From a virus (lineage: Duplodnaviria; Caudoviricetes): a stretch of 64,000 nt of DNA. The position numbers were made by a program, and so were the translations under genes. Positions within the stretch are counted from its first letter, which is position 1; every line of letters starts with the position of its first letter. Of the stretch, positions 31,279-57,595 are shown piece after piece. A model generated the notes under the pieces. That model made no database searches, was not told the DNA's origin, and saw only the letters and a list, made by a program, of their open reading frames with translations. The stretch lies in IMG/VR virus record IMGVR_UViG_3300017963_000189; one strand, 5' to 3'.

Positions 31279-31355
31279 TCCGCGCGGTTGGAATCGAACC
31301 AACGTGTAACCTACTACTCTTTCTACGCCTTATCAGAGCGAGGAGATACGCGCGG
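31279..31355 (-). tRNA. Rearranged tRNA-like RNA, anticodon arm (GAT) before the D-loop-like segment
   Basis: CCGCGCG/CGCGCGG, CGCT-CTGATAA-GGCG only ~8 nt after acceptor, AGTAGGTTA afterwards, T arm GTTGG-TTCGATT-CCAAC. Confidence 0.6.
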
Positions 31356-31366
31356 ATATTTTTTCG

Positions 31367-31439
31367 TACTCTCGGCCGGATTCGAACCGACATTGTTGGT
31401 TTCGTAGACCAAAGTCCTATCCTATTGAACGACGAGAGC
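31367..31439 (-). tRNA. trnR: tRNA-Arg(ACG)
   Basis: Cloverleaf. Confidence 0.92.
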
Positions 31440-31446
31440 ATATTAG

Positions 31447-31630
31447 CTTCACGAGTGAGATTCGAACTCATTGTCTCAGTCGGGCACTTAACCGCATCGA
31501 CAGTTTAACTTGTCCAACTCTTATCCGGAAAAGAGTAGAAACGTTCATGTTTCGCGAGAACATTACTAAGTTTCCAGAGGAACTCACCGAAGAAAGTGAG
31601 CGACGATTCACCACATCGTCCAGTCGTGAA
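31447..31630 (-). ncRNA. tRNA-like RNA (184 nt) with 6-bp D stem and ~115-nt variable region
   Basis: TTCACGA/TCGTGAA, GACGAT/ATCGTC, GCTCAC/GTGAGT, TGAG-TTCGAAT-CTCA. Confidence 0.55.
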
Positions 31631-31740
31631 ATATATTGTCTTAGCAGACAAGGAGCGTTCGGCATCGTCCTACTCTATCCTTTTCCCCTTATTTATGTTA
31701 CCAGCCACTAATGAGTGTCAGGTGGGTAAGTCTACCATTG

Positions 31741-31824
31741 TGAGAGCAATAGGATTCGAACCTATACAGCCGTTAGGCACCGGGTTTACAATCCGGCTCA
31801 GCTCACCGTCTCTGAAGTGCTCCC
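31741..31824 (-). tRNA. trnY: tRNA-Tyr(GTA), extended D stem
   Basis: Type II cloverleaf, loop TTGTAAA. Confidence 0.8.
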
Positions 31825-31916
31825 AAAAATGTGTGTTTCCATTTTGAACTACAACTGTATGACTTATGTCAGTGTTGCAGGATCGAGAACGTGTACACAC
31901 CAAACCAAACTCTTAG

Positions 31917-31991
31917 CTTACCCGCTCAGATTCGAACTGAGGTCTCACGGCTTAACAGGCCGGCGTTTTAGACCGCTAATACTACGGGCAA
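31917..31991 (-). tRNA. trnN: tRNA-Asn(GTT)
   Basis: Cloverleaf, G73. Confidence 0.88.
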
Positions 31992-31994
31992 ATA

Positions 31995-32070
31995 TGGTAT
32001 GGGAAGTAGGATTTTCACCCACAACTCCACCCGACTAAAGGCAGTATTTTGTATTTTAAACTATTCCCAT
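31995..32070 (-). tRNA. Non-canonical tRNA (sibling of 30400), encoded CCA, anticodon ambiguous
   Basis: ATGGGAA/TTCCCAT-ACCA; shares TGGGAATAGTTTAA and CCTACTTCCC with 30400 element. Confidence 0.55.
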
Positions 32071-32082
32071 ATGTAAATTTTA

Positions 32083-32093
32083 TGTCAAAGAAC
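32083..32093 (-). promoter_or_regulatory. boxA-like element (GTTCTTTGACA) at head of tRNA array
   Basis: Between promoter and first tRNA. Confidence 0.5.
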
Positions 32094-32118
32094 TTCTATT
32101 GTTTCACAACAATACTAT

Positions 32119-32147
32119 AATATACTAAATAATTTTTATCTTGTCAA
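32119..32147 (-). promoter_or_regulatory. sigma70-type promoter driving the tRNA/ncRNA array
   Basis: TTGACA-N17-TATATT exact. Confidence 0.8.
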
Positions 32148-32175
32148 CTGTTTTTTTACTTTTTTTTAACTTTTT

Positions 32176-32301
32176 TTATTCACCAAAAATCCAACTAAAT
32201 AAGGCAAAAAATCCAAACACCTTCAATACCGCAAATAACAACCCTAATGTTACTACCAACATAATAACTCCAAGTATTCCAGCTATCCAATCAAAAACCA
32301 T
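32176..32301 (-). CDS. Small membrane protein (41 aa)
   Basis: Start re-set to MVFDWI downstream of promoter. Confidence 0.55.
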   Translation of the reverse strand: MVFDWIAGILGVIMLVVTLGLLFAVLKVFGFFALFSWIFGE

Positions 32302-32331
32302 TACTTTTCCTTTCTCAATTTTGTATACTAC

Positions 32332-32360
32332 AATATACAAAATATTAGCATACTTGTCAA
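32332..32360 (-). promoter_or_regulatory. sigma70-type promoter (TTGACA-N17-TATATT)
   Basis: Exact match. Confidence 0.8.
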
Positions 32361-32380
32361 CTGTTTTCTGGTTTTTTTTC

Positions 32381-32415
32381 AAAAAAAAAACCCGAACTAC
32401 TTTCATAATTCGGGC
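32381..32415 (-). terminator. Intrinsic terminator
   Basis: CCCGAA/TTCGGG hairpin plus T10. Confidence 0.8.
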
Positions 32416-32444
32416 TTTATATATTCTTTATGAAAGTAGTTTTC

Positions 32445-32660
32445 TTATGGCGCTCCTGCTGTTGGTTGTTCATTATTATGATCATCAGCTTTACGGTTGG
32501 CTTTTACCCAATAAATAAAATAGCCAACACCTAAGAGCATAGTAATCCCACCAACGGTACCGGGAGCGGCAAAACCGAGGGCGTTTACCAATAACGCTAA
32601 GGCTAACGGTATAATAAATACCGCTAATAATAATCGTATAATAAGTTGTGATTTTTTCAT
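32445..32660 (-). CDS. Small membrane protein
   Basis: Two TM helices. Confidence 0.65.
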   Translation of the reverse strand: MKKSQLIIRLLLAVFIIPLALALLVNALGFAAPGTVGGITMLLGVGYFIYWVKANRKADDHNNEQPTAGAP

Positions 32661-32726
32661 TGTTCCTACTTTCTTTTGTTATCTAATATAAATATAAACT
32701 AAATTTCATTCCATGTTATATATCTT

Positions 32727-32754
32727 TATACTCGTATATAAATATAAAGTTCCA
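32727..32754 (-). promoter_or_regulatory. Putative alternative-sigma promoter TGGAAC-N16-AGTATA
   Basis: One of five similar elements. Confidence 0.45.
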
Positions 32755-32761
32755 AAATTTT

Positions 32762-32974
32762 TCACTTTTTTTTAAGTTTTTTACATTCACATTCGTATAC
32801 TTCCATACCACTCCAGCCAGCCCATATCTCTCCGGTATCTTTACATCTATCACAATCATATTCTCTTAAAAGTTCCCTTGACTTCTTTACATGATATTTG
32901 GTTAAACACCACATCCCAAATGCCGTTAAAAAACCAATAAGACATACAATTATTACTCCCTCAGGATTTTCCAT
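32762..32974 (-). CDS. Small membrane-anchored zinc-finger protein
   Basis: TM then CDRCKDTG...CEC. Confidence 0.6.
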   Translation of the reverse strand: MENPEGVIIVCLIGFLTAFGMWCLTKYHVKKSRELLREYDCDRCKDTGEIWAGWSGMEVYECECKKLKKK

Positions 32975-33197
32975 TCTCTTGTTCCCTTATAGTATATTCT
33001 TCCACTTCTTTCTCAAATAACGCCAGTTCCTCGGCTTCCATGTCATATACACTCTTTCGTTTTGGAAGATTCGGGCCCGCCATTATCTCTCTCATAAGTT
33101 CTAAATATCTCAACCTACCTATAAAACGATCAGCTTTCGCCATGTCGTTGGCTAAACCGTCACTCATTTTACAATTACATTTTACACATCTACACAT
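32961..33197 (-). CDS. Hypothetical protein
   Basis: AGGAG SD. Confidence 0.55.
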   Translation of the reverse strand: MCRCVKCNCKMSDGLANDMAKADRFIGRLRYLELMREIMAGPNLPKRKSVYDMEAEELALFEKEVEEYTIREQENGKS

Positions 33198-34344
33198 TTT
33201 GTATCTCCTTTATCTTTTCTATTACCATGTCACCGGAAATCCTTTTGGTACACTCAAATTGTCTACCACTGTCTTTGTGATACGGACACCAATTCCAATC
33301 ACCTTTATCAAATTCTACAAATGTGTCCACAAAACATCCCGTACATACCATACCATCATCTTTTTGAACATAATAATTGTTTTCTTTGAACTCAAACCAT
33401 GACTTTGAAAACCCACTAATCATTATCACTTTCTTTTTCAAGGCCCACGCTAACCAAGATAATCCTGATGTCAAACCTATAAAAAATATACAACGATTTA
33501 TTATGTCAATCACGTCTTGTATAGGTTTATCTTTTATCACCGTTACATTATCTAAGTCACATCCCTCTTTTGAAATTGATACCACTTCATAACCTTGATC
33601 TACTAAATAATCTACCACTTGTCGCCAACCATCAGGATTGTTCCAATACTTTGCTTGAGCGGTTGAATGTGTCGCTATACAAACATATGGTTTCTTCGGT
33701 CTTTCCATATTCGAATATGGAATATCTATTTCTGGGCGAATCTCTTTATACTCCAATCCCAACATATCAGTCGCCGTTTGTTGTAAAGGTATGGTTCTCC
33801 AATCCCTTTTATTTTTGAACGGATCATTAGGATTTATTCCGATAACATACATAGCATACAGATCATCCATTTCTACTCCAGGATTTACAAATTTAATTTT
33901 GGGATACTTACTGACGAAAAGTCCATTCCAGAATGTTGAACATATCACTTCGCATTGATGTTTTTTTCTAAATTCCTCTACATAAGGTATCCATGCTATT
34001 GTATCTCCAAGAGCTTTACTGTCAAGTTGAATATACACTCGTCTATTTTTTGCATTATAATCATGTATAAACAATGGTTTCTTATTTTTGAATACTCTTA
34101 TTTGATAATTGATAAACCATTTGAAATCTTCTTTTATCCAATGATTTATTTTTATTGTATCATGTTTTACTATTTCATTGTTTCTATCTTTATCTAATAA
34201 AAGTATATCGTAATCATTGTTATTCTTTTCGCCGAGAATCTCTACAAATGGTTGTCCTACAAAATGAAAATTCATCCTCTCTCTCATTTCATTCGTACCA
34301 CGTCTCTTACTATTCTCGTATATGTCTATAAGTCTCTCTTTCAT
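33190..34344 (-). CDS. Autotransporter O-heptosyltransferase (TibC/Aah)-like glycosyltransferase
   Basis: DSKALGDTIAW, STAQAKYWNN, FIGLTSGLSWLAW, CTGC...WCP...FECTK. Confidence 0.8.
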   Translation of the reverse strand: MKERLIDIYENSKRRGTNEMRERMNFHFVGQPFVEILGEKNNNDYDILLLDKDRNNEIVKHDTIKINHWIKEDFKWFINYQIRVFKNKKPLFIHDYNAKNRRVYIQLDSKALGDTIAWIPYVEEFRKKHQCEVICSTFWNGLFVSKYPKIKFVNPGVEMDDLYAMYVIGINPNDPFKNKRDWRTIPLQQTATDMLGLEYKEIRPEIDIPYSNMERPKKPYVCIATHSTAQAKYWNNPDGWRQVVDYLVDQGYEVVSISKEGCDLDNVTVIKDKPIQDVIDIINRCIFFIGLTSGLSWLAWALKKKVIMISGFSKSWFEFKENNYYVQKDDGMVCTGCFVDTFVEFDKGDWNWCPYHKDSGRQFECTKRISGDMVIEKIKEIQNV

Positions 34345-35286
34345 CCTAATACAACTCGTCTTATATTTATCGCGTCAAATACGGGCTCGCCCGTGAGAAA
34401 ATATACATCGTCATAGTTGGCGAAACGATTATCATAATACTCAAGATTAAATAAAAATAAAGGTTTCTTCCAACTCAAAGCTTCCTTAACAACTAAAGGA
34501 TTACACTCCGCTATATTCGATGGAAATACAACAGCGTCACAGTGTGCGTAGTAATCGTCAACGTTATCTTTTTCGCCATGAATGAAACAATTCAATGGTT
34601 TATCCTCATAAAGGTTTCCAATAATCCTCAAAATTCTTGGCGTAATTTCCAACAAAATCAAATACTATTTTGTCCTTTATATTCTTGTCTAAATAACGCG
34701 CCAGTTCAAACGCATATCCTTGATTCTTATTTGGTGTAAATAACCCTACCACTAAGATATGCTTACAATTTCTCATTATATCTATATAGGGATACGGACG
34801 TTCTTCACCTACTTGTTCTTTTACTTCATATTCCACAATCTCTTTTGGTATATCTATAATGTTATATTGTTTCACTTGATACGGACTTACCATTACAAAT
34901 CTATCAGGATAAAACCTTTTCTTTTGTGGATTAAATTCAACCGTATGTGATGTTTCAAAAATCATAAATCGTCTACTATGATCATAAACGATTTCAGCAA
35001 TTTTATCATCCATAAAAAGTTCAGGTACTTCTTGTAAATGAATAATGTCAGGTTGTATTTGTTCTATATAAGATAATAACACTTCTTTATCATTATCAAG
35101 TGATAAGAAACTATCTCCAAGTAAATCTATTATTTTATTTCGTTGAACCACATAATGATCAGATAACTTTTCATATTCAACAATATAAATATCGTATGTA
35201 TCAACCAAAAGTTCTATTGTTCTCAATAGATATTGAGGCATTCCACCAGTTGAAAGATGTGGAACGATGTACATAACTTTTTTCAT
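34341..35286 (-). pseudogene. GT4-like glycosyltransferase split by a +1 frameshift near 34610
   Basis: N part (PHLSTGGMPQY...PNKNQ...YWKPL*) and C part (KPLNCFIHGE...FPS..ECNPLVVKEALSW) are consecutive halves in different frames. Confidence 0.7.
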
Positions 35287-35609
35287 ACAATCTCTTTCAT
35301 TATTATTTTCGCCCGTTTCGAAGGCTCTTTTGTCATAAATGGAACTGGGCGAGCCGTTGTGTAATCGTACTCGTTACGACCACAAGTTATATCGATTATG
35401 TCACCGGTCTCAGGATTCCTGAGAAACCAATGCGTGCCTTCCTCAATCTCCATACAATAAGGTTTATAACCTTTCTCTTTTCCCTCTAAATGATAATAAA
35501 CTTCACTCGCGGTATAACAATGACCGAATAACGGTCTATCTTTATCCCTATACTTTTTCTTTATAAGTTCAGGATGATTTATAAGTGATTTCTTTATTTC
35601 ATTTATCAA
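35283..35609 (-). CDS. Hypothetical protein
   Basis: GHCYTASE...HWFL motif. Confidence 0.7.
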   Translation of the reverse strand: MINEIKKSLINHPELIKKKYRDKDRPLFGHCYTASEVYYHLEGKEKGYKPYCMEIEEGTHWFLRNPETGDIIDITCGRNEYDYTTARPVPFMTKEPSKRAKIIMKEIV

Positions 35610-35784
35610 CCGTTACTCCATATGGTTTTTCACGATGGTTAGGAGTTTTCCCTACCATTTGTGGAATATAATTTACTTGTTTATACTCTCTACATCCTTG
35701 ACAATCACCAACTTGTTTTGCTGATACCAACAACCAAATCCTATCTATATCATAATGTGGAGCACATTCGTCACATACTAACAT
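35599..35784 (-). CDS. Small zinc-binding hypothetical protein
   Basis: CDEC...CQGC. Confidence 0.55.
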   Translation of the reverse strand: MLVCDECAPHYDIDRIWLLVSAKQVGDCQGCREYKQVNYIPQMVGKTPNHREKPYGVTVDK

Positions 35785-35811
35785 TGTTTTCTCTCGTTTG
35801 GAAATAAATAA

Positions 35812-35892
35812 AAAAGGCTTTACAGGTCAGCCACTCGCATCCCACCGGTTTGTTTCACCCGCCAAAGCCTTGTCCGCTGCGTAAAACCTTTT
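35812..35892 (-). ncRNA. Unidentified structured RNA (81 nt)
   Basis: AAAAGGTTTTAC/GTAAAGCCTTTT terminal helix, GC-rich core, abuts tRNA-Thr. Confidence 0.4.
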
Positions 35893-35894
35893 TG

Positions 35895-35966
35895 AGCTCC
35901 CTATCAGAATCGAACTGATAACTTCTACTTACGAGGCAGATATTTTTCCAATTAAACTAAAGGAGC
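35895..35966 (-). tRNA. trnT: tRNA-Thr(CGT)
   Basis: Cloverleaf. Confidence 0.9.
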
Positions 35967-35968
35967 AT

Positions 35969-36052
35969 AAACGGCAACTAATTTACTTGTCGTGATTTTT
36001 TTCGTATAGGAATTTGCTCACGAAACAAACCCTAAAGAATGAGTTGCCGTTT
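35969..36052 (-). ncRNA. Unidentified structured RNA (84 nt)
   Basis: AAACGGCAACT/AGTTGCCGTTT 11-bp terminal helix. Confidence 0.4.
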
Positions 36053-36116
36053 GAACCTCGCTGTGATAAATCACTAGCGACCGGTCCCGTTATATTTTCG
36101 TTCTTGTCTATAAATA

Positions 36117-36539
36117 TTATACGTCTGAATTTTCAATAAGTTCCGCGGCTCTCTCTAAAAAGAAAATTTTATCTGTTTCAAGATCTGTATATACTCTTGT
36201 CCATGTTGGAGCACGAAATTCACCATCTACATAATCCAAATCAATTTGATCAACCGCATCACTACCAGTTTCCATATCTTCATATGTTTTAGCATATGTT
36301 TCGAACCATAAAATGTTTTCAGGTTTTGTTCCTTTTGGAAATACATCTTCTTGATTAAATAACTTTGTAGCAATCGTTTCACAAGCATTTGTTACACTTG
36401 TTCCGGTATCAGGAACTCCGGGCTCAGTCATTACAACTACACATTTTCCTTTATGTGTATACACTTGAACTATACACCATGAATCATGAATACCATATCC
36501 CTTGTATTCAAATCTAAAGTCTACATAATGTTGTTTCAT
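36117..36539 (-). CDS. Hypothetical protein
   Basis: GTSVTNACETIA motif. Confidence 0.7.
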   Translation of the reverse strand: MKQHYVDFRFEYKGYGIHDSWCIVQVYTHKGKCVVVMTEPGVPDTGTSVTNACETIATKLFNQEDVFPKGTKPENILWFETYAKTYEDMETGSDAVDQIDLDYVDGEFRAPTWTRVYTDLETDKIFFLERAAELIENSDV

Positions 36540-36746
36540 TTACTTACCTTTCCCGGCGACATACCTACCTTTCGCCAATTCCTCTAAATGTTGTTCAATT
36601 TTTATGACCTTTTCCTGAAGCGCGTTTAACTCAACTTGCTTTAGCGCAACAGTTGGTTCAGTTTTTACGGCATTCAATGACCGAATTGCCGATTCAACTA
36701 ATTTTTCAAGATGTGTTTTTGTGTTTATTGGTATTGATGTACTCAT
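36540..36746 (-). CDS. Hypothetical protein
   Basis: Co-oriented ORF. Confidence 0.6.
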   Translation of the reverse strand: MSTSIPINTKTHLEKLVESAIRSLNAVKTEPTVALKQVELNALQEKVIKIEQHLEELAKGRYVAGKGK

Positions 36747-36749
36747 AAC

Positions 36750-36971
36750 TTACTCCTTAAAAATTTCTCTAAGTTCCTTTTTTAAATCTTCTATTTCTTT
36801 TTCTTGTTTCGTCATTCTTTCTATCGCAATTTGTATTGTAGTCATATCCCACGTACCACCATAAACACCATATGTAGTTAAAGTTGTACTCAATTCGTCT
36901 TTCGCCACTCTTAGTTGGCGACGAAGTTCCTTGTAACGTTTACGTCGAGCTAAATAATCAACCAATTTCAC
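36750..36971 (-). CDS. Hypothetical protein
   Basis: Co-oriented ORF. Confidence 0.6.
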   Translation of the reverse strand: MKLVDYLARRKRYKELRRQLRVAKDELSTTLTTYGVYGGTWDMTTIQIAIERMTKQEKEIEDLKKELREIFKE

Positions 36972-37207
36972 TTTTTTCTCCCATCGATTTGTTTTTTGAT
37001 GTCTCTTATTATTTCAATTTCATTTTCAAGAACCTTGATGAACTCATTTAACTCAACTTGAGCCATTGAACGTTCAACTTTACTTCCACCATTCTTTAAT
37101 AAATCTATCAACGTAAGCCCATTGATCTTCCAAAATGATTTCATCTTTGTCGCCCGTAACTTTCGCGCGTCTCGTATCTCATTTCTAATCCAATCAACTC
37201 TCGACAT
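36968..37207 (-). CDS. Hypothetical protein
   Basis: Co-oriented ORF. Confidence 0.6.
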   Translation of the reverse strand: MSRVDWIRNEIRDARKLRATKMKSFWKINGLTLIDLLKNGGSKVERSMAQVELNEFIKVLENEIEIIRDIKKQIDGRKK

Positions 37208-37890
37208 TATAATACCATCGCTTTCTCGTGACCTACTATTATACTTGGATCAACCATTATTTTCATTCCTTTTTCAATTACCGTTCTACAAAATCCCACA
37301 TCCTCACTCGTAAAGTCTGTCATAATAATTCCATTATCTAAAGGTATATCTTCCCATATAGGCTTAAACCAGGGATAACCAACTTTTTCAAATACACCTT
37401 TTCGTACTAACATAAAACCCATACCGGTATAGGCGACTTCAATTAATGTGTCTTTATCATATACTTTTAAATCGTCAACACTCATAAATTTGAATGTACC
37501 ACTTCTTTTAAAAAATTCCAAATCCCAATTTACAACTGTTGCGAAGTGTTTTTGATCTTCCATTCTATATAAACCAGATACTATATCAAGTTGTGGATAA
37601 CCCTCAAGTGTGGCGACTAACTTAAAAAATTGTTCAGGATTCCATACTATATCCGAATCAATCCACATCATGTAATCATAATCTACTTGACCTTGAAAAG
37701 GCTTTTGATCCTTACCTCTTAGATTGTCGCCCCCTAAACACATATTACGGGCATAATAAACAACACTACTATACTTGTTTATAACCTGAAACTCAATGCC
37801 TCGTCTCCATAATTGACCAAGAGTTTCACTCCAAGACATTAAAAACTTGTTCGAATATGTTCTCCCAGGTATTGCTAAAATTATTTTCAT
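37207..37890 (-). CDS. GT-A fold glycosyltransferase
   Basis: DYDYMMWIDSDI, GMGFMLVRKGVFE, SEDVGFC. Confidence 0.85.
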   Translation of the reverse strand: MKIILAIPGRTYSNKFLMSWSETLGQLWRRGIEFQVINKYSSVVYYARNMCLGGDNLRGKDQKPFQGQVDYDYMMWIDSDIVWNPEQFFKLVATLEGYPQLDIVSGLYRMEDQKHFATVVNWDLEFFKRSGTFKFMSVDDLKVYDKDTLIEVAYTGMGFMLVRKGVFEKVGYPWFKPIWEDIPLDNGIIMTDFTSEDVGFCRTVIEKGMKIMVDPSIIVGHEKAMVL

Positions 37891-38153
37891 ACATTCACCG
37901 TTTTGTCCACTGATAAATGATATTCACCTTTGATACGATAACTCGGAAATAGACGAACAAAATCAAGTTTGATTTTTTGTTCAACATTATTTATAACAGA
38001 ATCATCTATATATGTTTTGTTTTCTTCCTTTTGATAATATCTTATCACTACAAACCAAGTATCATCTTGTTCCCAATAATGAATAATATCATGTTCAAAA
38101 TTTCCATACCAACTATCAATGGCTCGTTGTACGTCTACATTTTGTAACTTCAT
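37887..38153 (-). CDS. Hypothetical protein
   Basis: Co-oriented ORF. Confidence 0.6.
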   Translation of the reverse strand: MKLQNVDVQRAIDSWYGNFEHDIIHYWEQDDTWFVVIRYYQKEENKTYIDDSVINNVEQKIKLDFVRLFPSYRIKGEYHLSVDKTVNV

Positions 38154-38401
38154 TTCTCTACCTCTTTTTTATATGTCGCCTGACACACTCGACAACGATA
38201 TACAATAGTATAATCAAGATACTGCCCATCGTCGTCCTCTTTAATCTCCAAACACTTCTCCGTATATAAGTGTTCCTCTTTACAATTATGCTCGCCAACA
38301 TATCGGGGACGCGGAACTACATCCACGTGCCCGATTGTTAACCCCAAATCCCTTAATTTCTTGTACTCTTTACTCAACATAAATAACCTTATTGAACTCA
38401 C
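38150..38401 (-). CDS. Hypothetical protein
   Basis: Co-oriented ORF, CRVC motif. Confidence 0.55.
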   Translation of the reverse strand: MSSIRLFMLSKEYKKLRDLGLTIGHVDVVPRPRYVGEHNCKEEHLYTEKCLEIKEDDDGQYLDYTIVYRCRVCQATYKKEVEK

Positions 38402-39431: not shown

Positions 39432-39471
39432 AATAACCTCTTTTCTTACCTATAAGTTACAAAACTTTTTA

Positions 39472-49202: not shown

Positions 49203-49333
49203 TTAATTTCTCCTGTATAGGTTTATATTTTATGTGTGACCTTATTCACTTAACATAATATATAACGTTGCCATACCGGAAATTATAAACACTCCAAGAA
49301 TTCCGCCTACCACTAATGATAATATTATTTCCA

Positions 49334-49826: not shown

Positions 49827-49860
49827 TAAACCTCTCCATATTTACATATAAATATATAAG

Positions 49861-50088
49861 TTATTTTGTTTCCTCTTTTTTTCCAAAATACTTTTTCAAT
49901 ATAAGATGAAATACAAATAATGATATCGGAAACGCTAAAATATTACTCAATAAATCGGTATTTATTTTACTCGTATCTCCACCAAGAGCAAAAACTAATA
50001 AACCTATAATAAATCCCGCTCCAAAAGCAAATACAATATATCTCCATACAAACGACCACCAAACTTCCAATGTCTTTCCAAATTCCAT
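49861..50088 (-). CDS. Small membrane protein
   Basis: Two TM helices. Confidence 0.6.
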   Translation of the reverse strand: MEFGKTLEVWWSFVWRYIVFAFGAGFIIGLLVFALGGDTSKINTDLLSNILAFPISLFVFHLILKKYFGKKEETK

Positions 50089-50098
50089 AACTTTCTCC

Positions 50099-50518
50099 TT
50101 AGTTTAAATACCACATATACCAACTAAATACATTTAATAATAAAAAGGCGACCCACAAAATGACTTGTGACCATACTTTCTTTTTTATCGCCCAATAAAT
50201 CCAAAAAAAGTTTGATACTATCCATACTGGCCAACACCATATCACTTTTAATCCACATAATACAATCCCTATAAGTGAAAATGTAGTAGCAATACGACCT
50301 ATAATAGTTAACTTTTTCTTTTCTTTACCTTCCCAATCAAACTCTTTTAGGTTTACATTTCCTATCTTTACAGGATCAACTTTTTTAGTTTTCCCTACAG
50401 CCTTTTCTATTGTTTTTTTCGCTTGTGTTGCTGCGGCTTTATTCTTTTCTTCCTCAATTATTGGATCAAATGTTTTATCAAGTTCTTGTGTAAAATCATC
50501 TAAATTATCATCTGCCAT
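50099..50518 (-). CDS. Membrane protein, PnuC-like C-terminal helices
   Basis: SLIGIVL...IWCWPVWIVSN..W...SQVIL...LNVFSWYMW; start MADDN. Confidence 0.55.
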   Translation of the reverse strand: MADDNLDDFTQELDKTFDPIIEEEKNKAAATQAKKTIEKAVGKTKKVDPVKIGNVNLKEFDWEGKEKKKLTIIGRIATTFSLIGIVLCGLKVIWCWPVWIVSNFFWIYWAIKKKVWSQVILWVAFLLLNVFSWYMWYLN

Positions 50519-50552
50519 ATAACCCCCTTGCGTTGATTTGTACATAACTAAG

Positions 50553-50638
50553 CGGAAGATGTAGGATTCGAACCCACGCTACCAAAGGTAGACCTCGGTT
50601 TTCAAAACCGGTGCATTACCAGACTCTGCCAATCTTCC
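50553..50638 (-). tRNA. trnS: tRNA-Ser(TGA)
   Basis: Type II cloverleaf, G73. Confidence 0.92.
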
Positions 50639-50720
50639 AAAGTGGCGGGAGTTTAAAAACATCAACTCTTGATCACCACCTACTCCCGCTTAGTATGATG
50701 AATAGACCTGATGCTATGAG

Positions 50721-50806
50721 CGGAGAGTACAGGATTCGAACCTGTGTGTCCAAAGGACAACCTCCGGGTAGCAACCGGGTACATTACCTGACTCTGTCAA
50801 CTCTCC
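50721..50806 (-). tRNA. trnS: tRNA-Ser(GCT)
   Basis: Type II cloverleaf, G73. Confidence 0.92.
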
Positions 50807-50811
50807 ATATA

Positions 50812-51186
50812 TTATTTCATTTTCTTTTCTGCTAACTTTATTACTTGTTTTAAATATTTTACATATAATTTAAAATCTTTTTCTAAATTTGATGGTTTAT
50901 ACGGAATTTTTTTCTTAACAACAGGATCATGACTTCCATCTAATACATCAAATAAAAAATTAATTGGCGGATAATCATATCCCGCGGAAGCAATTATTAT
51001 CCAATCATCTTCTGGCGAACCTTTTCTATCACTATGCCAGTATACAAGTCCGTCCCTGGAATCCCATTCAGCTTCCCAACCATCAATTTTTTTGTTATTA
51101 ACTTTTTTACCAATATAATTATCTAAATCAGCAGGATATTCATCTAAATCAATTTTCTCTACTAATTTTTTCATCTTTATCGACAT
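50812..51186 (-). CDS. Hypothetical protein with MSIKMKKLVE leader
   Basis: Leader shared with 51534 and 51862 ORFs. Confidence 0.65.
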   Translation of the reverse strand: MSIKMKKLVEKIDLDEYPADLDNYIGKKVNNKKIDGWEAEWDSRDGLVYWHSDRKGSPEDDWIIIASAGYDYPPINFLFDVLDGSHDPVVKKKIPYKPSNLEKDFKLYVKYLKQVIKLAEKKMK

Positions 51187-51188
51187 TC

Positions 51189-51413
51189 TTATTCTCCATA
51201 TAAGTCATTTAGTTCAACAATCATATCGTCCATATCTTCTAAAATTTCCTTGTCTCTTTCTTCGCCGTTGTCTTTAAAATATTCACTTTTTAATTGATTA
51301 AAGTCACGACGATGTTGAATAATTTTTCGTCTATCATCCCCACTTTGCATGGCGACTCTCCACATATCCATAAAATGATTCATTTTTTTACGTATAATTT
51401 CGCGTTTAGTCAT
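51189..51413 (-). CDS. Hypothetical protein
   Basis: GGAG SD. Confidence 0.6.
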   Translation of the reverse strand: MTKREIIRKKMNHFMDMWRVAMQSGDDRRKIIQHRRDFNQLKSEYFKDNGEERDKEILEDMDDMIVELNDLYGE

Positions 51414-51438
51414 TTACTTTCTCCACATAATAAATTTG

Positions 51439-51528
51439 AGTCGGTGACAGGATTTGAACCTGCGACAGGGTTTCCCCTTTTGCTGGTTTTGCAGACCAGC
51501 CCCTTAGACCAGACTCGGGCACACCGAC
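51439..51528 (-). tRNA. trnC: tRNA-Cys(GCA) with long variable arm
   Basis: Loop CTGCAAA, U73, variable arm AGGG-GAAA-CCCT. Confidence 0.85.
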
Positions 51529-51533
51529 ATTAC

Positions 51534-51860
51534 TTACCACGGTTCTTCTAAAAAACGTAAAGCAGCTCTAATTAAACTACGATTGCCTATTGGATCATAG
51601 CTTTTTGTATGAGCTCTAAAATGATTTCTTTTATACCAAATATCCAATCCTTTAACTTTACTTCTATCAACTACTCTTGAACCGGCTCTACTTGGCGAAT
51701 CATAAGTCATATCTCTAACTTCGGCTTTAACATCTTTCATTTTGTTAATTTCATCTACAAACTTTTTCAAAGATAGCCGTTTTTTATTATCTTCAAACCA
51801 CTTTTCAATATCTTTAAGTGTTGTTTTACCTTCCAATAATGATTTAAGTTTTATAGACAT
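51534..51860 (-). CDS. Hypothetical protein with MSIKLKSLLE leader
   Basis: Leader motif. Confidence 0.65.
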   Translation of the reverse strand: MSIKLKSLLEGKTTLKDIEKWFEDNKKRLSLKKFVDEINKMKDVKAEVRDMTYDSPSRAGSRVVDRSKVKGLDIWYKRNHFRAHTKSYDPIGNRSLIRAALRFLEEPW

Positions 51861-51861
51861 T

Positions 51862-52167
51862 CTATTTCACCAACTTAAATGATACTACTTCCCATTTCGC
51901 CTTTTTTGAAGTCAATAAAATGGGAGTTTTACCTTTCCAACCTACTCTTACATGACGTTTCAACTCAACAATATATCCACCATTCTTACCAATACCCTCT
52001 AATCGAACCGTCCTATTCGTTTGTTTCATTGACTCAACTCGACCAACTTGCTGATATACAGGAAGTCTCGTCAAAAACATTTTAGAAACTAATGGATACA
52101 TTTCTTCAATTACATTTTTTTCTACTAACTTGTCTTTTAGTTTCATTGAATTCTCCATAATTTTCAT
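51862..52167 (-). CDS. Hypothetical protein with MKLKDKLVE leader
   Basis: Likely start at MKLKDKL. Confidence 0.6.
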   Translation of the reverse strand: MKIMENSMKLKDKLVEKNVIEEMYPLVSKMFLTRLPVYQQVGRVESMKQTNRTVRLEGIGKNGGYIVELKRHVRVGWKGKTPILLTSKKAKWEVVSFKLVK

Positions 52168-52172
52168 ATATA

Positions 52173-52201
52173 AATATACGAAAATAAAATAACGTTGTCA
52201 A
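52173..52201 (-). promoter_or_regulatory. sigma70-type promoter (TTGACA-N17-TATATT)
   Basis: Exact match. Confidence 0.75.
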
Positions 52202-52202
52202 G

Positions 52203-52622
52203 TTATTTTTTGGCTTTTTTTACCGTTTTCGTTTTATCATTTGTACGTCTATTATATTTTGCTTGTTTCGCCTTTGCTTGAGCGGGTGTCTCATTTTTCC
52301 TACGATCTGCAATACCCATCTTTTCACGAACTACATAATTTGTATTTTGTTTTACCTGTGTGTCCATATTCTTTTTCTTCTTATATAAAAATATAGGAAT
52401 AAGAATAGGTAAAAGTGTTTTCAACATATCCAATATATCTTTTTGAGCTAAGAACTTCAACAATTCTTTCCCAAACTCAACACTTTCGCCTGCTGCTTCT
52501 TTAGCATCAGCTGCTATCGCTGCAGGCTCCCAGACATTCGTGTACCCTGTATATAAAAACCAACCAACGACTAAAATGATAATCAAGGTATATGTTCTGT
52601 GTTCTAAAATCCATCTAAACAC
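52203..52622 (-). CDS. Membrane protein with basic tail
   Basis: TM segments; LLPILIP motif shared with 52994 ORF. Confidence 0.6.
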   Translation of the reverse strand: MFRWILEHRTYTLIIILVVGWFLYTGYTNVWEPAAIAADAKEAAGESVEFGKELLKFLAQKDILDMLKTLLPILIPIFLYKKKKNMDTQVKQNTNYVVREKMGIADRRKNETPAQAKAKQAKYNRRTNDKTKTVKKAKK

Positions 52623-52634
52623 CTTCTTTCTCCG

Positions 52635-52997
52635 TTAATATTTCTTTTGATAAATCCCCAAATCAAAAACTACTTTATCTAATTCATTAACAACCTTGAT
52701 CAACATCATTCTTTTACCATAAAATTTTTGTAACTCTTTTGGCTTGATTTTTATTTCCTTTCCAAAAGATTCTATCTCATTTCCCTCTTTATCATACATA
52801 TAAACCACTAACCACGCATTATATGGTTTACTCTTTCCTTGTATCTCTACTTCATAAAGAAAATCTACAAATATGGTTTTTCCTTTACGATATTCTATAT
52901 CATATACTCCACTTTTTATTTTAGGAAGGGGCGACTCGCCAGAAAACAATGATCCCACAAATAAAAGTATCAATATGATTATCAATGACTTTTTCAT
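52635..52997 (-). CDS. Secreted/exported hypothetical protein
   Basis: Signal-peptide-like N-terminus MKKSLIIILILLFVG. Confidence 0.65.
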   Translation of the reverse strand: MKKSLIIILILLFVGSLFSGESPLPKIKSGVYDIEYRKGKTIFVDFLYEVEIQGKSKPYNAWLVVYMYDKEGNEIESFGKEIKIKPKELQKFYGKRMMLIKVVNELDKVVFDLGIYQKKY

Positions 52998-53458
52998 TTC
53001 TTTACCTCTTTCTTAAAGACGGTTATTTCCTTATCATGACTCTTTCTTGTAAAATATGGAATTATTACAGGTAACAATGTTGTAACTATTGCTAATATAC
53101 TATCCATCGTTCCCTCTTTATTCGCATTATTTTCCGTATGAGAAGCTTTCAATTCTGCTTCTAACTTCTCGTAATCTTCCTCTAATTCTTGTATTCTATA
53201 TTTCAACAATTCCATTTGTAAATACAATTCAGTATCAAATTCGTCCATATTTTCAGGAACAGATTCCGCTATAGCGGGTTCTTCGACAGATTCCTCAGCT
53301 ACTTCAGGTCTCTCAGCACTTTTTGTATGATGTTCTTTTGTAATGAATTCACCAAAGACAACATTATATGCCTTATCGAGTGTACCTTGACCATAGGCGA
53401 AAAGTAAAAAAAGAGTAATAGACAATCCCCAAACAAGTTTGCCAACTGTAAACTTCAT
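52994..53458 (-). CDS. Membrane-anchored coiled-coil protein
   Basis: N-terminal TM, coiled coil, C-terminal LLPVIIP. Confidence 0.65.
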   Translation of the reverse strand: MKFTVGKLVWGLSITLFLLFAYGQGTLDKAYNVVFGEFITKEHHTKSAERPEVAEESVEEPAIAESVPENMDEFDTELYLQMELLKYRIQELEEDYEKLEAELKASHTENNANKEGTMDSILAIVTTLLPVIIPYFTRKSHDKEITVFKKEVKK

Positions 53459-53502
53459 AAAATTTCTCCTGATATTCTCTATATATAAATATAAGTGAAA
53501 TT

Positions 53503-53703
53503 TTATTTTATCTTGTTTACCGCTTTCTTTATTTCATTTAACGCTTCAAGAATTTCATAATATGTCGCCGATACAACATCAATTTCTTTAGTAATTTTAC
53601 GAATTTTACTTATTTGAAATTGATAGTATACGACAAAACCAACAAAGACTAACATAACCATAAATAAGATTGCGACTACAATCCATAATATCTCTGTTAT
53701 CAT
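53503..53703 (-). CDS. Small membrane protein
   Basis: Single TM. Confidence 0.55.
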   Translation of the reverse strand: MITEILWIVVAILFMVMLVFVGFVVYYQFQISKIRKITKEIDVVSATYYEILEALNEIKKAVNKIK

Positions 53704-54137
53704 TTTTTGACTTCTTTAGTTTCACCAGGACCACCATCAAGCTGATCGGCTTTCTCTTTCCATTCCTTAAATACTTCAAAAAAGTTACTCAACTTCGCAT
53801 GAAGCGCATGACTAAACTCAACTTCCTCATTCATATCCAAACGACTATTCATTTCTTTCGCGACATAATCAACACTAAAATCTTGATATTGTCTAAGAAG
53901 TTTTTCTACTTCACTATGAATTGTTGAATATAATAATCGTTGAAATTGATCCCTGTCTCTCCAACTAATATCAAGGGCTTCGACTATTACCCTTATAATT
54001 TCTCTTGTAAGCCGTTTTTCAATATCATGATTTGGATTACTTATTTCACAATTTCCTTGACGTTGATAAGGATTGAATATTTCATTGTGTCCACTAAAAT
54101 TTCTATAATCCGTCGGACATTTATCATCTTTACTCAT
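53700..54137 (-). CDS. Hypothetical protein
   Basis: AGGAGG SD. Confidence 0.65.
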   Translation of the reverse strand: MSKDDKCPTDYRNFSGHNEIFNPYQRQGNCEISNPNHDIEKRLTREIIRVIVEALDISWRDRDQFQRLLYSTIHSEVEKLLRQYQDFSVDYVAKEMNSRLDMNEEVEFSHALHAKLSNFFEVFKEWKEKADQLDGGPGETKEVKK

Positions 54138-54145
54138 TTCGCCTC

Positions 54146-54616
54146 CTATAAACCAAATCTATCTAATTTAGCTGGTTCAATATCATAAACACTTGAGAAT
54201 TGAGTTTTGAGATTTCCAAACCAATCAATACCGTGTTTTTGAATAATGGTATAAAAATCTTGAACATCATGATCACGAAGTTTGTAATCCCATTCACCGG
54301 TCTTTTCATTCATAACTGGATGAACGTGTAACAATTCATGATACATCAAAATTTCTCGTGTTTCATCGTCAAGTTGATCCCACAAATCACCGGACATTTG
54401 AATAACATAATCACAATTACCAAATACTTTCAATAAGTTATTCGCCCTTGAACAATGACCAGCCGTAAACTTATTGATAAATGGATATACCAACAAATAC
54501 TTTATCCTAACATTTTCGATGCCCATATTTTTGTCGTGCATAACCTTGTCCGCTAATACTTCTAAGTCTTGACTTTTCACATACTCGCGATTCTTAATTT
54601 TTACAGTCTCACTCAT
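54146..54616 (-). CDS. Phage metallopeptidase-like protein
   Basis: ILMYHELLHV (HExxH) and HDVQDF..II..HG. Confidence 0.75.
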   Translation of the reverse strand: MSETVKIKNREYVKSQDLEVLADKVMHDKNMGIENVRIKYLLVYPFINKFTAGHCSRANNLLKVFGNCDYVIQMSGDLWDQLDDETREILMYHELLHVHPVMNEKTGEWDYKLRDHDVQDFYTIIQKHGIDWFGNLKTQFSSVYDIEPAKLDRFGL

Positions 54617-54631
54617 AACATTTTTTCCTTT

Positions 54632-54829
54632 CTATGCTTTTTGTGTTACTCCACAATATTTACATTTCTCATAACTGTGATGTGAATCTCGCCCATCAGG
54701 TTCAAATTCATGTTCACATATTTCCTGAAGCGCTTTAATAGCCTTTTCGATTTTAATAACTTGTTGATTTAAATCAACTCGTTTTTGTTCTAAATCTTCA
54801 ACGGCTACTTGTAATACGGCTTGTTCCAT
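54632..54829 (-). CDS. Small coiled-coil/zinc-finger protein
   Basis: CEHEF...CKYCG; start MEQAV after GGAGG. Confidence 0.6.
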   Translation of the reverse strand: MEQAVLQVAVEDLEQKRVDLNQQVIKIEKAIKALQEICEHEFEPDGRDSHHSYEKCKYCGVTQKA

Positions 54830-54830
54830 A

Positions 54831-55187
54831 TTATACCTCCTGATTTGGAATAAACATTTCGTCTGCCAAATAAACTTCATGGCGACTATGAGATTTGGGA
54901 TGAAGTCTTTTAGCTAACACTTTAATTACTCTACGATCTTTCGGAACTCTAAACATTTTTTGTAGAAATTCGTCACATTGTTCTTTAGTTTTTAGTACAT
55001 GGAAACCTGATTCATAATATGTAGCACAAGAACCATCTTTGACTGTTTTCCTGTCAGCAGATAACCATTTACCAACTTCTAATTTCCTTGAACCACGTTC
55101 ATTTTTACCTTTAATCCCATGAAATAAAGTATGATATTCACCATTAATAACTTCAACTATTCTATAACATTCAATAATTTGATCCAT
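54831..55187 (-). CDS. Hypothetical protein
   Basis: YESGFHV motif. Confidence 0.65.
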   Translation of the reverse strand: MDQIIECYRIVEVINGEYHTLFHGIKGKNERGSRKLEVGKWLSADRKTVKDGSCATYYESGFHVLKTKEQCDEFLQKMFRVPKDRRVIKVLAKRLHPKSHSRHEVYLADEMFIPNQEV

Positions 55188-55233
55188 AACCTTTTCCTTT
55201 CACCTATATAACCTTTATACTACTCAATTTTAA

Positions 55234-57495
55234 TTAAGTTCCATCTAATATTTCTCTTATCTTTCTCGCCAATGATGTCGGCGTCACAGGTTTCTGAATA
55301 AAATTAGTTCCAGGATCTAATACCCCACGATGAACTATTGTGTTATCGGTGTAACCGGACATATACAAAACTTTTAGATTTGGTATAAAATCACTTAACT
55401 GGATCGCAAGTTCTCTACCGTCCATTCTCGGCATCACGACATCAGTCACCAACATATTTATTTTTGTTTGATTATTTTTCATCACTTCTATAGCTTCAAT
55501 ACCATTGGACGCACAAATAACTTTATATCCCATATCTCTTAACGCGTCACAAAGTAATAGACGAACTTCTTTTTCATCTTCTACTAATAACAATGATTCA
55601 TTTCCACTATAATCTAATATCTCTCCATTTATTTGTATTTCGTTTTTTGTCTCTCTATCCACTCTTGGCAAATATACCTTGAACGCCGTTCCTTGTCCAA
55701 TCTCACTATATACCCAAACAAAACCACCACTTTGTTTTATTATTCCATACGCCGTAGACAATCCTAAACCAACTCCCTTACCCATTTCTTTTGTCGTAAA
55801 AAATGGTTCAAAGATTCTTTCTTTTGTCGCCATATCCATTCCAACACCATCATCCGTAACAGAAAACATTATGTAACGACCTTTATCAATCATCTTTTGT
55901 TTTCGTTCAACGTGATCTTCATCAAAATATATATTTTTTGTCTCAAGTCTAATCAATCCTACATCTTGTTCAGGTATAGCATCCCGAGCATTGATTATCA
56001 TATTCATCATAACCAAACTAATTTGATTGACATCAACAAAACAATTACCCAAATCAGGATCAAGATGTTTAGCGATTTCTATATCTTCTCTTATCAGTGT
56101 CGCCAAAACTTTTATTTCATTTTCAAGAATGTTATTTAAGTTAACAACTTCTGGCGTCAAAATTTGTTTTCTACTAAAAGCAAGAAGTTGTTTTGTAAGT
56201 GCCTCGGCTCTATCAGCCGCATTATCTATTTTTTCTAATTTTGTTTGTAAATATATATGTGGTTCTGTTTCAGGACATTTTTGACTTCTCCTAATAAGAA
56301 GTTCAGTGTGACCACGAATAACGGTAAGAATGTTATTGAAATCGTGAGCAACTCCACCCGCTAATAAACCAATAGCTTCCAATTTAGCAGCTTGTCGTAA
56401 TTGTTCTTCAAGATTTAATTTTTCTGATATATCATAAAAAATTACAAGTATAGATTGTTTATTTTTATATATTATTGGTTTAGCAACAACTTCAACATCT
56501 ATGATACTACCATCTTTTTTAAAGAATTTTTCGTCTAACGGTTCATTAGTTTCTCCTGTTTCTATCATATTTTTTATTCTTCCTTTAACAACACTTCTAT
56601 AATCAGGATGAACATAATCCATTACTTTGTCGCCAACCAAATCTTTATAATTGTCAGCTCCAATTAATTGACATGCAGCAGGATTGGCGAAAACAATCTC
56701 CATACTTTTTATATTGTAAACTATGATTGAAGATGGTAAAAGTTCCACTAAATCTTTATATTGTCTTTCAAGAGATTCAAGTTTTAGTTTTTCACTTATA
56801 TCATTGAACAAAACCATACTTGCTTTTTGATTCTTATAAGTTATTAATTTAGAAATCACTTCCATTTCAATAGCTTCTTTTTTATCATGTGATAAAAATT
56901 TCATTCTACTCGCTGGACAATATCCTTTTTCTTGTAATTCCTTTATTCGCCGTTTTCCTTCCTCAATAGAATCAGGATGGACGGATTCAAAAACACTTTC
57001 AGGTTTATCATCGTCCAATGGACGATTTATCATTTTTCTCGCTTGTTTGTTGGAAAATAATTTTTGTTTTGTTTTTAAACTATAAACTGCCATTCCGATT
57101 GGCAAAAGTTCAACTAAATCTTCATAGTATTGTTCTTTTTCTATTTGTTTAGTAATATCTATACCAAAACTTAAAAATGTATTATTTGGAGTTATTTCTG
57201 CAGAAAATAAACCATGACGTGTTTCACCATTTTTATGTAATATGGTAAACTCTCTATTTAATACTTTACCTTTTTCACGTAATTCATTACTAATCGCGAT
57301 CCGTTCTTCCGGATACTTCCACATATTAAATTCAAGAGAAGTTTTACCAATTATTTCTTCTCGTGCATAACCGGTCATTTCACAAAATAAATCATTTACT
57401 TTTATAAACTTTCCAGTGTCCAATTCGCTATATGCTACCGCAATAGGTAACGAACCATATACTTTATCAAATGAAATTGTTATATCGTCGTTCAA
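55234..57495 (-). CDS. Hybrid sensor histidine kinase (3 PAS + HisKA/HATPase + receiver)
   Basis: LAGGVAHDFNNIL, NMIINARDA, FEPFFTTKEMGKGVGLGLS, LLVEDE, VTDVVMPRMDG, FIQKP. Confidence 0.95.
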   Translation of the reverse strand: MNDDITISFDKVYGSLPIAVAYSELDTGKFIKVNDLFCEMTGYAREEIIGKTSLEFNMWKYPEERIAISNELREKGKVLNREFTILHKNGETRHGLFSAEITPNNTFLSFGIDITKQIEKEQYYEDLVELLPIGMAVYSLKTKQKLFSNKQARKMINRPLDDDKPESVFESVHPDSIEEGKRRIKELQEKGYCPASRMKFLSHDKKEAIEMEVISKLITYKNQKASMVLFNDISEKLKLESLERQYKDLVELLPSSIIVYNIKSMEIVFANPAACQLIGADNYKDLVGDKVMDYVHPDYRSVVKGRIKNMIETGETNEPLDEKFFKKDGSIIDVEVVAKPIIYKNKQSILVIFYDISEKLNLEEQLRQAAKLEAIGLLAGGVAHDFNNILTVIRGHTELLIRRSQKCPETEPHIYLQTKLEKIDNAADRAEALTKQLLAFSRKQILTPEVVNLNNILENEIKVLATLIREDIEIAKHLDPDLGNCFVDVNQISLVMMNMIINARDAIPEQDVGLIRLETKNIYFDEDHVERKQKMIDKGRYIMFSVTDDGVGMDMATKERIFEPFFTTKEMGKGVGLGLSTAYGIIKQSGGFVWVYSEIGQGTAFKVYLPRVDRETKNEIQINGEILDYSGNESLLLVEDEKEVRLLLCDALRDMGYKVICASNGIEAIEVMKNNQTKINMLVTDVVMPRMDGRELAIQLSDFIPNLKVLYMSGYTDNTIVHRGVLDPGTNFIQKPVTPTSLARKIREILDGT

Positions 57496-57515
57496 CTATT
57501 CTCTCCGTAAATAAG

Positions 57516-57595
57516 AATCCCCGGTGAGAATCGAACTCACATTCTCAGCTCCGGTTACGGCTACAAGCTTAGGAGGCTTGCCCGGCTACGGGGAC
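57516..57595 (-). tRNA. Rearranged tRNA-like RNA, anticodon arm (CCT, Arg) nested before D-like segment
   Basis: GTCCCCG/CGGGGAT, CAAGC-CTCCTAA-GCTTG only 8 nt after acceptor, T arm GTGAG-TTCGATT-CTCAC. Confidence 0.65.

Follow-up and report, generated by a model that had tools for sequence, protein, structure and literature searches.

Within a 64,000-nucleotide (nt) stretch of DNA from an uncultured large phage (Duplodnaviria; Caudoviricetes; IMG/VR record IMGVR_UViG_3300017963_000189), we describe two transfer RNA (tRNA)-like genes that carry the anticodon arm ahead of the D-loop sequence and inside the equivalent of the D stem. The whole stretch, referred to below as the window, has a G+C content of 35% and carries a dense tRNA array on the minus strand. 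The first gene, c1, is a putative rewired tRNA-Ile(GAU) gene of 77 nt (31279..31355), and the second, c2, is a putative rewired tRNA-Arg(CCU) gene of 80 nt (57516..57595). Both were delimited from the sequence and from family models (R1 for c1, R2 for c2), and neither encodes the CCA end. They lie on the minus strand, at the places given in a preliminary description of the window. We regard the secondary structure in which the anticodon arm is nested in a D-stem equivalent as well established by covariation among related sequences. On the sequence evidence, c1 and c2 are probably working elongator tRNA genes without a cloverleaf, c1 reading AUU and AUC as isoleucine and c2 reading AGG as arginine. 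We also think it likely, with somewhat less confidence, that such non-cloverleaf Ile and Arg elongator tRNAs are widespread in bacterial translation, are still L-shaped, and are charged by the ordinary isoleucyl- and arginyl-tRNA synthetases (IleRS and ArgRS).

In both genes the 5' part runs from the acceptor stem through U8-A9 and just 5-6 further bases into the anticodon arm. The arm begins at nt 15 in c1 and at nt 16 in c2, which is 7-8 nt past the acceptor strand. The acceptor stem of c1 (5' strand, nt 1-7, at 31349..31355; partner strand at 31280-31286) forms seven of seven Watson-Crick pairs and is followed by the discriminator A73 at 31279. U8, A9 and U10 lead into the 5' strand of a helix that we call alpha (C11 U12 C13, 31343..31345), which is followed by C14 and the anticodon arm (nt 15-31, 31325..31341; loop CUGAUAA, anticodon GAU at 31332-31334). 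The anticodon stem has four Watson-Crick or G-U pairs and one U.U at its base, and this U.U is conserved in the family. The bases AGAAA connect the arm to the second strand of alpha (G37 A38 G39, 31317-31319), and the helix thereby encloses the anticodon arm. Next come the D-loop-like segment UAGUAGGU (31309..31316), with bases like A14, R15 (R, purine), G18G19 and U20, the connector UACAC and the T arm (31287..31303), whose loop UUCGAUU is closed by a perfect stem of five base pairs (bp), GUUGG/CCAAC, according to the Rfam alignment and covariation.

The acceptor stem of c2 likewise has 7 bp, the first being G.U, and its discriminator is U73. The preliminary description had credited both genes with perfect 7-bp acceptor and T arms; this holds for c1 and for the two T arms, and is slightly generous for the c2 acceptor. 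After U8 and A9, c2 continues with the 5' strand of a second helix, gamma (G10 C11, 57585..57586), the 5' strand of alpha (C12 G13 G14, 57582..57584), G15 and an anticodon arm with a perfect 5-bp stem (nt 16-32, 57564..57580; loop CUCCUAA, anticodon CCU at 57571-57573). The order is completed by UAG, the second alpha strand (C36 C37 G38, 57558-57560), the D-loop-like segment UAACCGGA (57550..57557; A14-, R15-, G18G19- and A20-like), the second gamma strand (G47 C48, 57548-57549), UGAGAAU and the T arm (57524..57540), in which the loop UUCGAUU is closed by the perfect stem GUGAG/CUCAC, again by Rfam alignment and covariation. Both anticodon loops are canonical, with 7 nt, U33 and a purine at 37. 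The segment that follows the anticodon arm measures 21 nt with UAGUAGG in c1 and 23 nt with UAACCGG in c2. The loops, the distance to the anticodon arm and the D-like segment behind it are thus much as had been drawn before.

Relatives of the two genes were collected by pattern scans of IMG/VR, which recovered at least 92 distinct Ile-type genes (alignment A1) and 58 distinct Arg-type genes (alignment A2). Second scans, with the tested positions left free in the pattern, recovered at least 154 and at least 95 distinct genes, respectively; all counts on 154 Ile-type and 95 Arg-type genes are among the matches listed. The pair counts for alpha and gamma are taken from sets whose patterns leave the tested columns free, and the earlier alignments A1 and A2 agree with them. 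The acceptor, anticodon and T stems covary in both families, with all seven acceptor pairs covarying in the Ile type and all five anticodon-stem pairs in the Arg type. The proposal that the two sequences represent a real structural class is borne out by these two large conserved families with their abundant compensatory base changes.

Helix alpha pairs the strand after U8-A9 with a strand 3-5 nt past the anticodon stem. Its three pairs are never broken in the 154 Ile-type genes: 11-39 is CG in 137, AU in 15 and UA in 2; 12-38 is CG in 77, UA in 52, GC in 17, AU in 7 and UG in 1; and 13-37 is CG in 135, GC in 18 and UA in 1. Among the 95 Arg-type genes, 12-38 is an invariant CG and 13-37 is always paired (GC 73, AU 13, CG 6, UA 2, GU 1), while 14-36 is paired in 60 and unpaired in 35, with A.C and A.A mismatches. 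In helix gamma of the Arg type, nt 10-11 pair with the two bases after the GGA motif. Position 10-48 is paired throughout (GC 56, AU 33, UA 3, CG 2, GU 1), and 11-47 is unpaired in only three genes (CG 65, UA 15, AU 9, UG 2, GC 1, UU 3). The positions next to it are invariant in all 95 genes, 9-49 as A-U and 8-50 as U.G. The sequence of the gamma pairs is that of the canonical pairs G10-C25 and C11-G24. In c2, the enlarged D arm in which the anticodon arm had been suspected to nest is closed by G10-C48 and C11-G47, and C12-G38, G13-C37 and G14-C36 adjoin these pairs directly. A gamma-like helix was also considered for the Ile type, where U10-R49 is possible in 147 of the 154 genes; it is not established, because U10 is invariant and the next pair fails in 71 of the 154.

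The same comparison bears on the idea that these are tRNAs of the mitochondrial D-armless kind, in which the variable region is long or contains a small hairpin and no pairing spans the anticodon arm. The Rfam alignment itself has this appearance, since it deletes the D arm (15 model positions are reduced to 4-5 nt) and inserts 18-20 nt in the variable region, and hairpins around the GG can be formed after the anticodon arm, GUAG/UUAC in c1 and CCG/CGG in c2. However, these hairpins show no double changes, and their central pairs are broken in 42 of 75 Ile-type and about 20 of 57 Arg-type genes, whereas alpha and gamma, which pair across the arm, show nearly perfect covariation. Both families moreover conserve the GG and the T-loop motif, and the mitochondrial modes of ARAGORN miss the genes. 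We consider the D-armless reading very unlikely. The CCGG/CCGG pairing that energy folding finds in c2 is similarly unconserved, its inner pairs being unpaired in 14 of 57 and 36 of 54 relatives.

Standard tRNA finders do not recognize the two genes. ARAGORN called 42 other tRNAs in the window and missed both c1 and c2. Its lowered-threshold and intron modes and its three mitochondrial/D-replacement modes gave no call at c1 and no sensible cloverleaf; the relaxed-mode calls at c2 were implausible, with a 4-base anticodon, an 'intron' or a 48-nt mitochondrial fragment. The D-replacement option had been suggested as a check, and it recovered neither gene. A standard search of the whole window with the Rfam tRNA model (RF00005) returned 40 tRNA matches, c1 and c2 not among them. 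The two scored 29.7 and 34.0 bits (gathering threshold 29) only when a small region was searched with lax filters.

That every standard tRNA sequence motif is present could point to an ordinary cloverleaf with an odd D arm, or to a gene whose RNA is rearranged into a normal tRNA. The 7-8 nt ahead of the anticodon arm leave no room for a D hairpin, and the canonical D hairpin (10-13/22-25) is absent from that place in both genes. No standard cloverleaf fits either gene, and the possibility that one would score better than the rearranged fold, raised with the original observation, has not materialized. The genes are not circularly permuted, because both ends of the acceptor stem sit at the gene ends; to reach the canonical order, the RNA would have to go through two cut-and-join events, for which we saw no signal. 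We give this alternative hardly any credence.

Covariance models built from the families single out the two genes. The Ile-family model R1 scores c1 at 97 bits, the next-best match in the window reaching 23. With the Arg-family model R2, c2 reaches 89.6 bits and c1 33.3, and no ordinary tRNA of the window exceeds 27.8. According to these searches, the window contains exactly one Ile-type and one Arg-type member. The score of c1 with R2, together with the shared architecture, means that the two sequences are not wholly unrelated, as they were at first called. As a negative control, R2 was run on 0.81 Mb of unrelated viral contigs, the loci of chance pattern matches, and produced no match at E<=1e-3. 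Among the relatives listed, the nearest is 87% identical to c1 and 76% identical to c2.

The bases that build the core of a canonical tRNA are conserved in the rewired families. U8-A9 is invariant in 58 of 58 Arg-type genes found with a pattern that did not fix it. The segment after the second alpha strand keeps the canonical D-loop spacing A14-R15-N-N-G18-G19 in a motif U-A-R-N-N-G-G, of which the UA, the GG and the U of the segment are invariant or nearly so in the Ile family. Covariation links the R of this motif to the base immediately 5' of the T stem, just as in the R15-Y48 Levitt pair (Y, pyrimidine): the combinations are AU in 100, GC in 47, AC in 5 and GU in 2 of the 154 Ile-type genes, and AU in 49, GC in 8 and another in 1 of the Arg-type genes. 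The corresponding partners are G42 and C52 in c1 and A41 and U55 in c2. Spacing and covariation together uphold the earlier claim that the anticodon arm precedes a D-loop-like segment.

Bases outside the core are retained as well. The Arg-type genes have A after the GG in 57 of 58 cases and C35 without exception. In the Ile type, the base after the GG is U in at least 90% of the genes, and A73 occurs in 154 of 154. A20 is the main determinant for ArgRS and U20 is among the bacterial Ile determinants (PMC9976931), and the retained bases of the rewired families agree with the bacterial identity sets given in that work. The anticodons, which the patterns left free, are restricted in the same sense: UCU, ACG, UCG, CCU and CCG make up 94 of 95 on the Arg scaffold (58 of 58 in the A2 set), and UAU, GAU and CAU (NAU) make up 153 of 154 on the Ile scaffold.

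The content of phage tRNA arrays provides evidence on the decoding role. We compared 121 phage loci, each with at least 8 ordinary tRNAs, by Fisher tests whose p-values are rough. An ordinary Ile-GAU gene is present in 3 of 39 arrays with the rewired counterpart vs 43 of 82 without it (p=8e-7). The corresponding figures are 0 of 14 vs 42 of 107 for Arg-ACG (p=0.002) and 7 of 29 vs 44 of 92 for Arg-UCU (p=0.03). One array of 21 tRNAs (L332) has one rewired Ile gene and zero tRNA-Ile called by ARAGORN. Judged by this gene content, rewired genes replace the ordinary gene of the same anticodon. The window itself has ordinary Ile-UAU and Arg-ACG genes, and neither ARAGORN nor Rfam finds in it an ordinary Ile-GAU gene or an ordinary Arg-YCU gene that could decode AGR. 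As the preliminary description had it, the window shows no AGR decoder besides c2; the only other Arg tRNA in the ARAGORN and Rfam results is the Arg-ACG gene. The codons concerned are in use: the 35 long open reading frames (ORFs) of the window (9349 codons) contain 412 ATT or ATC, 178 AGA and 42 AGG.

These data also bear on the possibility that the RNAs do not decode and only mimic Ile and Arg tRNAs in shape, as nuclease decoys, regulators, primers or recombination sites. Phage tRNAs are reported to counter tRNA-targeting defences (PMC11555353), and an unusual core could let such RNAs escape or attract a nuclease. Yet a decoy would not need identity bases outside the anticodon, and the A20-like base of the Arg type and the A73 and U20-like base of the Ile type are retained. 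A decoy role would also leave unexplained why the same-anticodon isoacceptor is absent from the arrays and why the window lacks ordinary Ile-GAU and AGR decoders. We consider a non-decoding role unlikely, though less so than the other alternatives discussed here.

Homologues of c1 and c2 occur in hundreds of viral contigs from unrelated phages and varied sample types, and they are full-length and conserved in length. Finished genomes of cultured phages contain similar genes that are not annotated, as a blastn search of the GenBank phages showed. In Microbacterium phage Magritte (L001, 1405-1571), unannotated Arg-UCU and Ile-GAU rewired genes follow each other between annotated tRNA-Cys and tRNA-Ala genes, and a UCU-type rewired gene is present in Pseudomonas phages vB_PaeM_Ty and HHBS10_2. 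The Ile type is found in 45 Streptomyces phage records, in Rhodococcus phage Peregrin and in one crAss-like phage. Nearly all GenBank matches of the Ile type have no annotated feature beneath them; a coding sequence overlies the match in two Coruscant records. As an exception, EGole gene 108 (L510, 399-475) is annotated as a tRNA-Leu for UUA, yet its loop is CUGAUAA, and the gene is unannotated in about 40 sibling genomes. In Streptomyces phages (EGole; Jay2Jay, L511), the rewired Ile(GAU) gene has a nucleotidyltransferase gene immediately ahead of it and an FtsK-like gene behind it.

The Ile pattern was also run against 185,579 prokaryote species, one genome each, and gave 12 matches, of which 10 are true members. 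All 10 lie on metagenome-assembled contigs, several of them in phage-like tRNA arrays, and none is in an isolate genome. The class looks phage-borne so far, the scan of cellular genomes having covered the Ile type. Some searches yielded no members. A first loose pattern, CTGATAA-N12-14-TAGTAGG, gave 118 matches, of which 116 were due to chance; a match of c1 to an Alcaligenes phage was merely the T arm of an ordinary tRNA-Pro; and one Arg-type gene (L299) had no blastn match among the GenBank phages.

The wide distribution weighs on the question whether the genes are decaying tRNA pseudogenes or assembly artefacts, as their rejection by the standard finders might suggest. Hundreds of distinct full-length copies in unrelated phages, with compensatory changes in every helix, and the same architecture in finished genomes of cultured phages speak against this. 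Sequencing runs of two studies also contain the region, although the DNA of the window may itself come from either of these samples. No RNA run was among those listed for the region, a result that is neutral as to expression. Decay or misassembly is improbable in the extreme.

Several sub-types and outliers of the rewired class were noted (L262, 926-1007; L280, 1802-1883; L184, 5210-5290; L267, 11003-11080; L194, 6590-6680). Among the sub-types, Ile(UAU) genes are built on a scaffold resembling that of Arg, one gene has the loop CUCUUAA with a Lys-like CUU, and an Arg type of 91 nt has an additional connector insert. The outliers are single genes with a UAC or ACG anticodon on the Ile scaffold or UGU on the Arg scaffold. 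At two loci a phage transfer-messenger RNA gene adjoins a rewired Ile(GAU) gene (L065, 1457-1816, and L122, 5895-6253), and L122 additionally carries an ordinary tRNA-Ile(GAU) and an amber-reading tRNA.

A number of observations count against our interpretation of c1 and c2 as working tRNAs with a nested anticodon arm. The covarying sets consist of related sequences. The p-values of the array comparison are rough because the contigs are related, and hence not independent, and are truncated. The models R1 and R2, with which c1 and c2 score highly, had both genes in their training alignments. The minimum-energy fold is more stable than the conserved fold, at -27.5 vs -21.9 kcal/mol for c1 and -25.4 vs -21.2 kcal/mol for c2. 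A conserved fold 4-6 kcal/mol above the minimum is common for tRNAs, whose folds are shaped by tertiary contacts. Finally, in the Arg type the D-loop branches off the composite helix two pairs short of the top and comes back through one base, which makes it uncertain whether the loop extends as far as the T loop.

We propose that c1 would be transcribed along with the tRNA array and c2 from inside an operon. RNase P and 3' trimming would release the RNAs, to which CCA would then be added, and IleRS or ArgRS would charge them through the identity bases they have kept. The charged RNAs would serve a phage of 35% G+C for which the window shows no ordinary tRNA gene with either anticodon. In the folded molecule, alpha should stack on the anticodon stem, because the 5' strand runs directly from alpha into the stem. 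Alpha, with gamma in the Arg type, would then extend the anticodon stem to an arm of about 10-11 layers, like the normal stack of D stem and anticodon stem. The Ile type would contribute five layers of anticodon stem, one of internal loop, three of alpha and U10.U40, and the Arg type five, one and three layers of the same kinds and two of gamma. U8, the A14-like A, the R15-Y48-like pair and G18G19 would rebuild the usual core and elbow, giving an L shape.

Exchanging segments 10-21 and 22-45 of the canonical chain would give the Ile-type layout, with the three new joints 9-22, 45-10 and 21-46. In the structure of yeast tRNA-Phe, the bases that each of these joints would link are neighbours in the canonical triples 9-12-23, 45-10-25, 46-13-22 and 21-8-14. 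In the Arg type, U8 and A9 may either pair with U49 and G50 or have their usual tertiary roles. There are hints that the two families arose once and that the anticodon later switched at position 35 (UCU to UAU), because the layout is common to two class Ia families and Ile(UAU) genes occur on an Arg-like scaffold.

The placement of both c1 and c2 is that expected of genes. c1 lies within the array, 10 nt from a tRNA-Arg(ACG) gene, with a spacing like that of the neighbouring tRNAs. c2 lies in a 103-nt gap between two minus-strand ORFs, where it exactly occupies the space from the stop of a 68-amino-acid ORF to the ribosome-binding site of a 753-amino-acid ORF. The latter, directly downstream of c2 (55234-57495, minus strand), encodes a hybrid sensor kinase with PAS domains, HisKA, HATPase_c and a receiver, an odd cargo for a phage.

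The window contains further unusual tRNA-like elements, all on the minus strand. A 91-nt tRNA at 51438-51528 has the anticodon GCA (Cys), discriminator U and a class II body whose long variable arm contains a 4-bp hairpin; it lies near four tRNA-Ser genes, and a long extra arm is unusual for tRNA-Cys. ARAGORN calls a tRNA-Asp with an AUC anticodon (A34) at 30937-31009, beside two ordinary tRNA-Asp(GUC) genes. The element at 31998-32070 scores 37.3 bits with Rfam and is called by ARAGORN only at a lowered threshold and with a 4-base anticodon, and the one at 30166-30236 has an acceptor stem and a T arm and a core that is not clear. Two Rfam tRNA matches are missed by ARAGORN, one of 120 nt at 25486-25605 and one of 79 nt at 25277-25355, the latter with the loop UUGAAGC and a Phe-like GAA anticodon.

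Compared with the canonical class I tRNA-Ile(GAU) and tRNA-Arg(CCU/UCU) of RF00005, the rewired genes have the same 7-bp acceptor stem, 5-bp T and anticodon stems, UUCRAUY T loop, U8, A14, R15-Y48, G18G19, family identity bases, length of 77-80 nt and position in phage arrays. They differ in lacking a D hairpin at nt 10-25: the strands of the D stem flank the anticodon arm, and the D-loop lies 3' of it. Mitochondrial D-armless tRNAs similarly have no D hairpin after the acceptor stem and similarly defeat the cloverleaf models of Rfam and ARAGORN. In those, however, the D arm has become a short flexible connector, G18G19 is lost and the T arm is often reduced, whereas the rewired genes belong to phages of bacteria, keep the T arm whole, retain the D-loop motif and have covarying pairs in place of the D stem.

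Other natural non-standard tRNAs, the tRNASec, selC* tRNACys and allo-tRNAs, have also come largely from metagenome mining (PMC7609411; PMC5389517). They keep the cloverleaf order and change the stem lengths (8/5, 9/4, 8/4, 9/3), while the rewired genes have standard lengths in a changed order. In tRNASec, a D stem lengthened to 6 bp replaces part of the tertiary core (PMC7609411; PMC5389517); by analogy, the alpha-gamma helix of the Arg type, with 5-7 layers, may do the same. In the circularly permuted tRNA genes of Cyanidioschyzon merolae, the two halves are in reverse order, 3' before 5', and processing by way of a circular intermediate yields a normal tRNA. The segment order departs from the textbook there as well; the rewired genes, unlike these, have normal termini and a changed internal order, so that the mature RNA must be non-cloverleaf.

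A 2020 review of natural non-canonical tRNAs covers tRNASec, selC* tRNACys, allo-tRNA, tRNAPyl and mitochondrial tRNAs, and the natural exceptions it lists are changed stem lengths and reduced mitochondrial forms only (PMC7609411). We found no description of the rewired layout in a full-text literature search, whose coverage was incomplete, so that this is absence of evidence only; to that extent, the class does not appear to have been catalogued already as ordinary tRNA variants, the other outcome against which the preliminary description had cautioned.

The cloverleaf is treated as universal for the tRNAs of bacterial ribosomes. If our interpretation is correct, the rewired genes would be a natural, non-organellar exception to the universal order of tRNA arms, and the L-shaped core could be built with a different connectivity of strands. 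This raises the question why such tRNAs occur in phages and why for Ile and Arg; escape from host enzymes that recognize the normal D arm is one possibility. Natural new scaffolds for tRNA engineering would become available. The only AUY and AGG decoders of the window are hidden from ARAGORN and from the default Rfam search, and phage tRNA sets would thus be systematically under-counted, which would distort analyses of codon usage and of the dependence of phages on their hosts.

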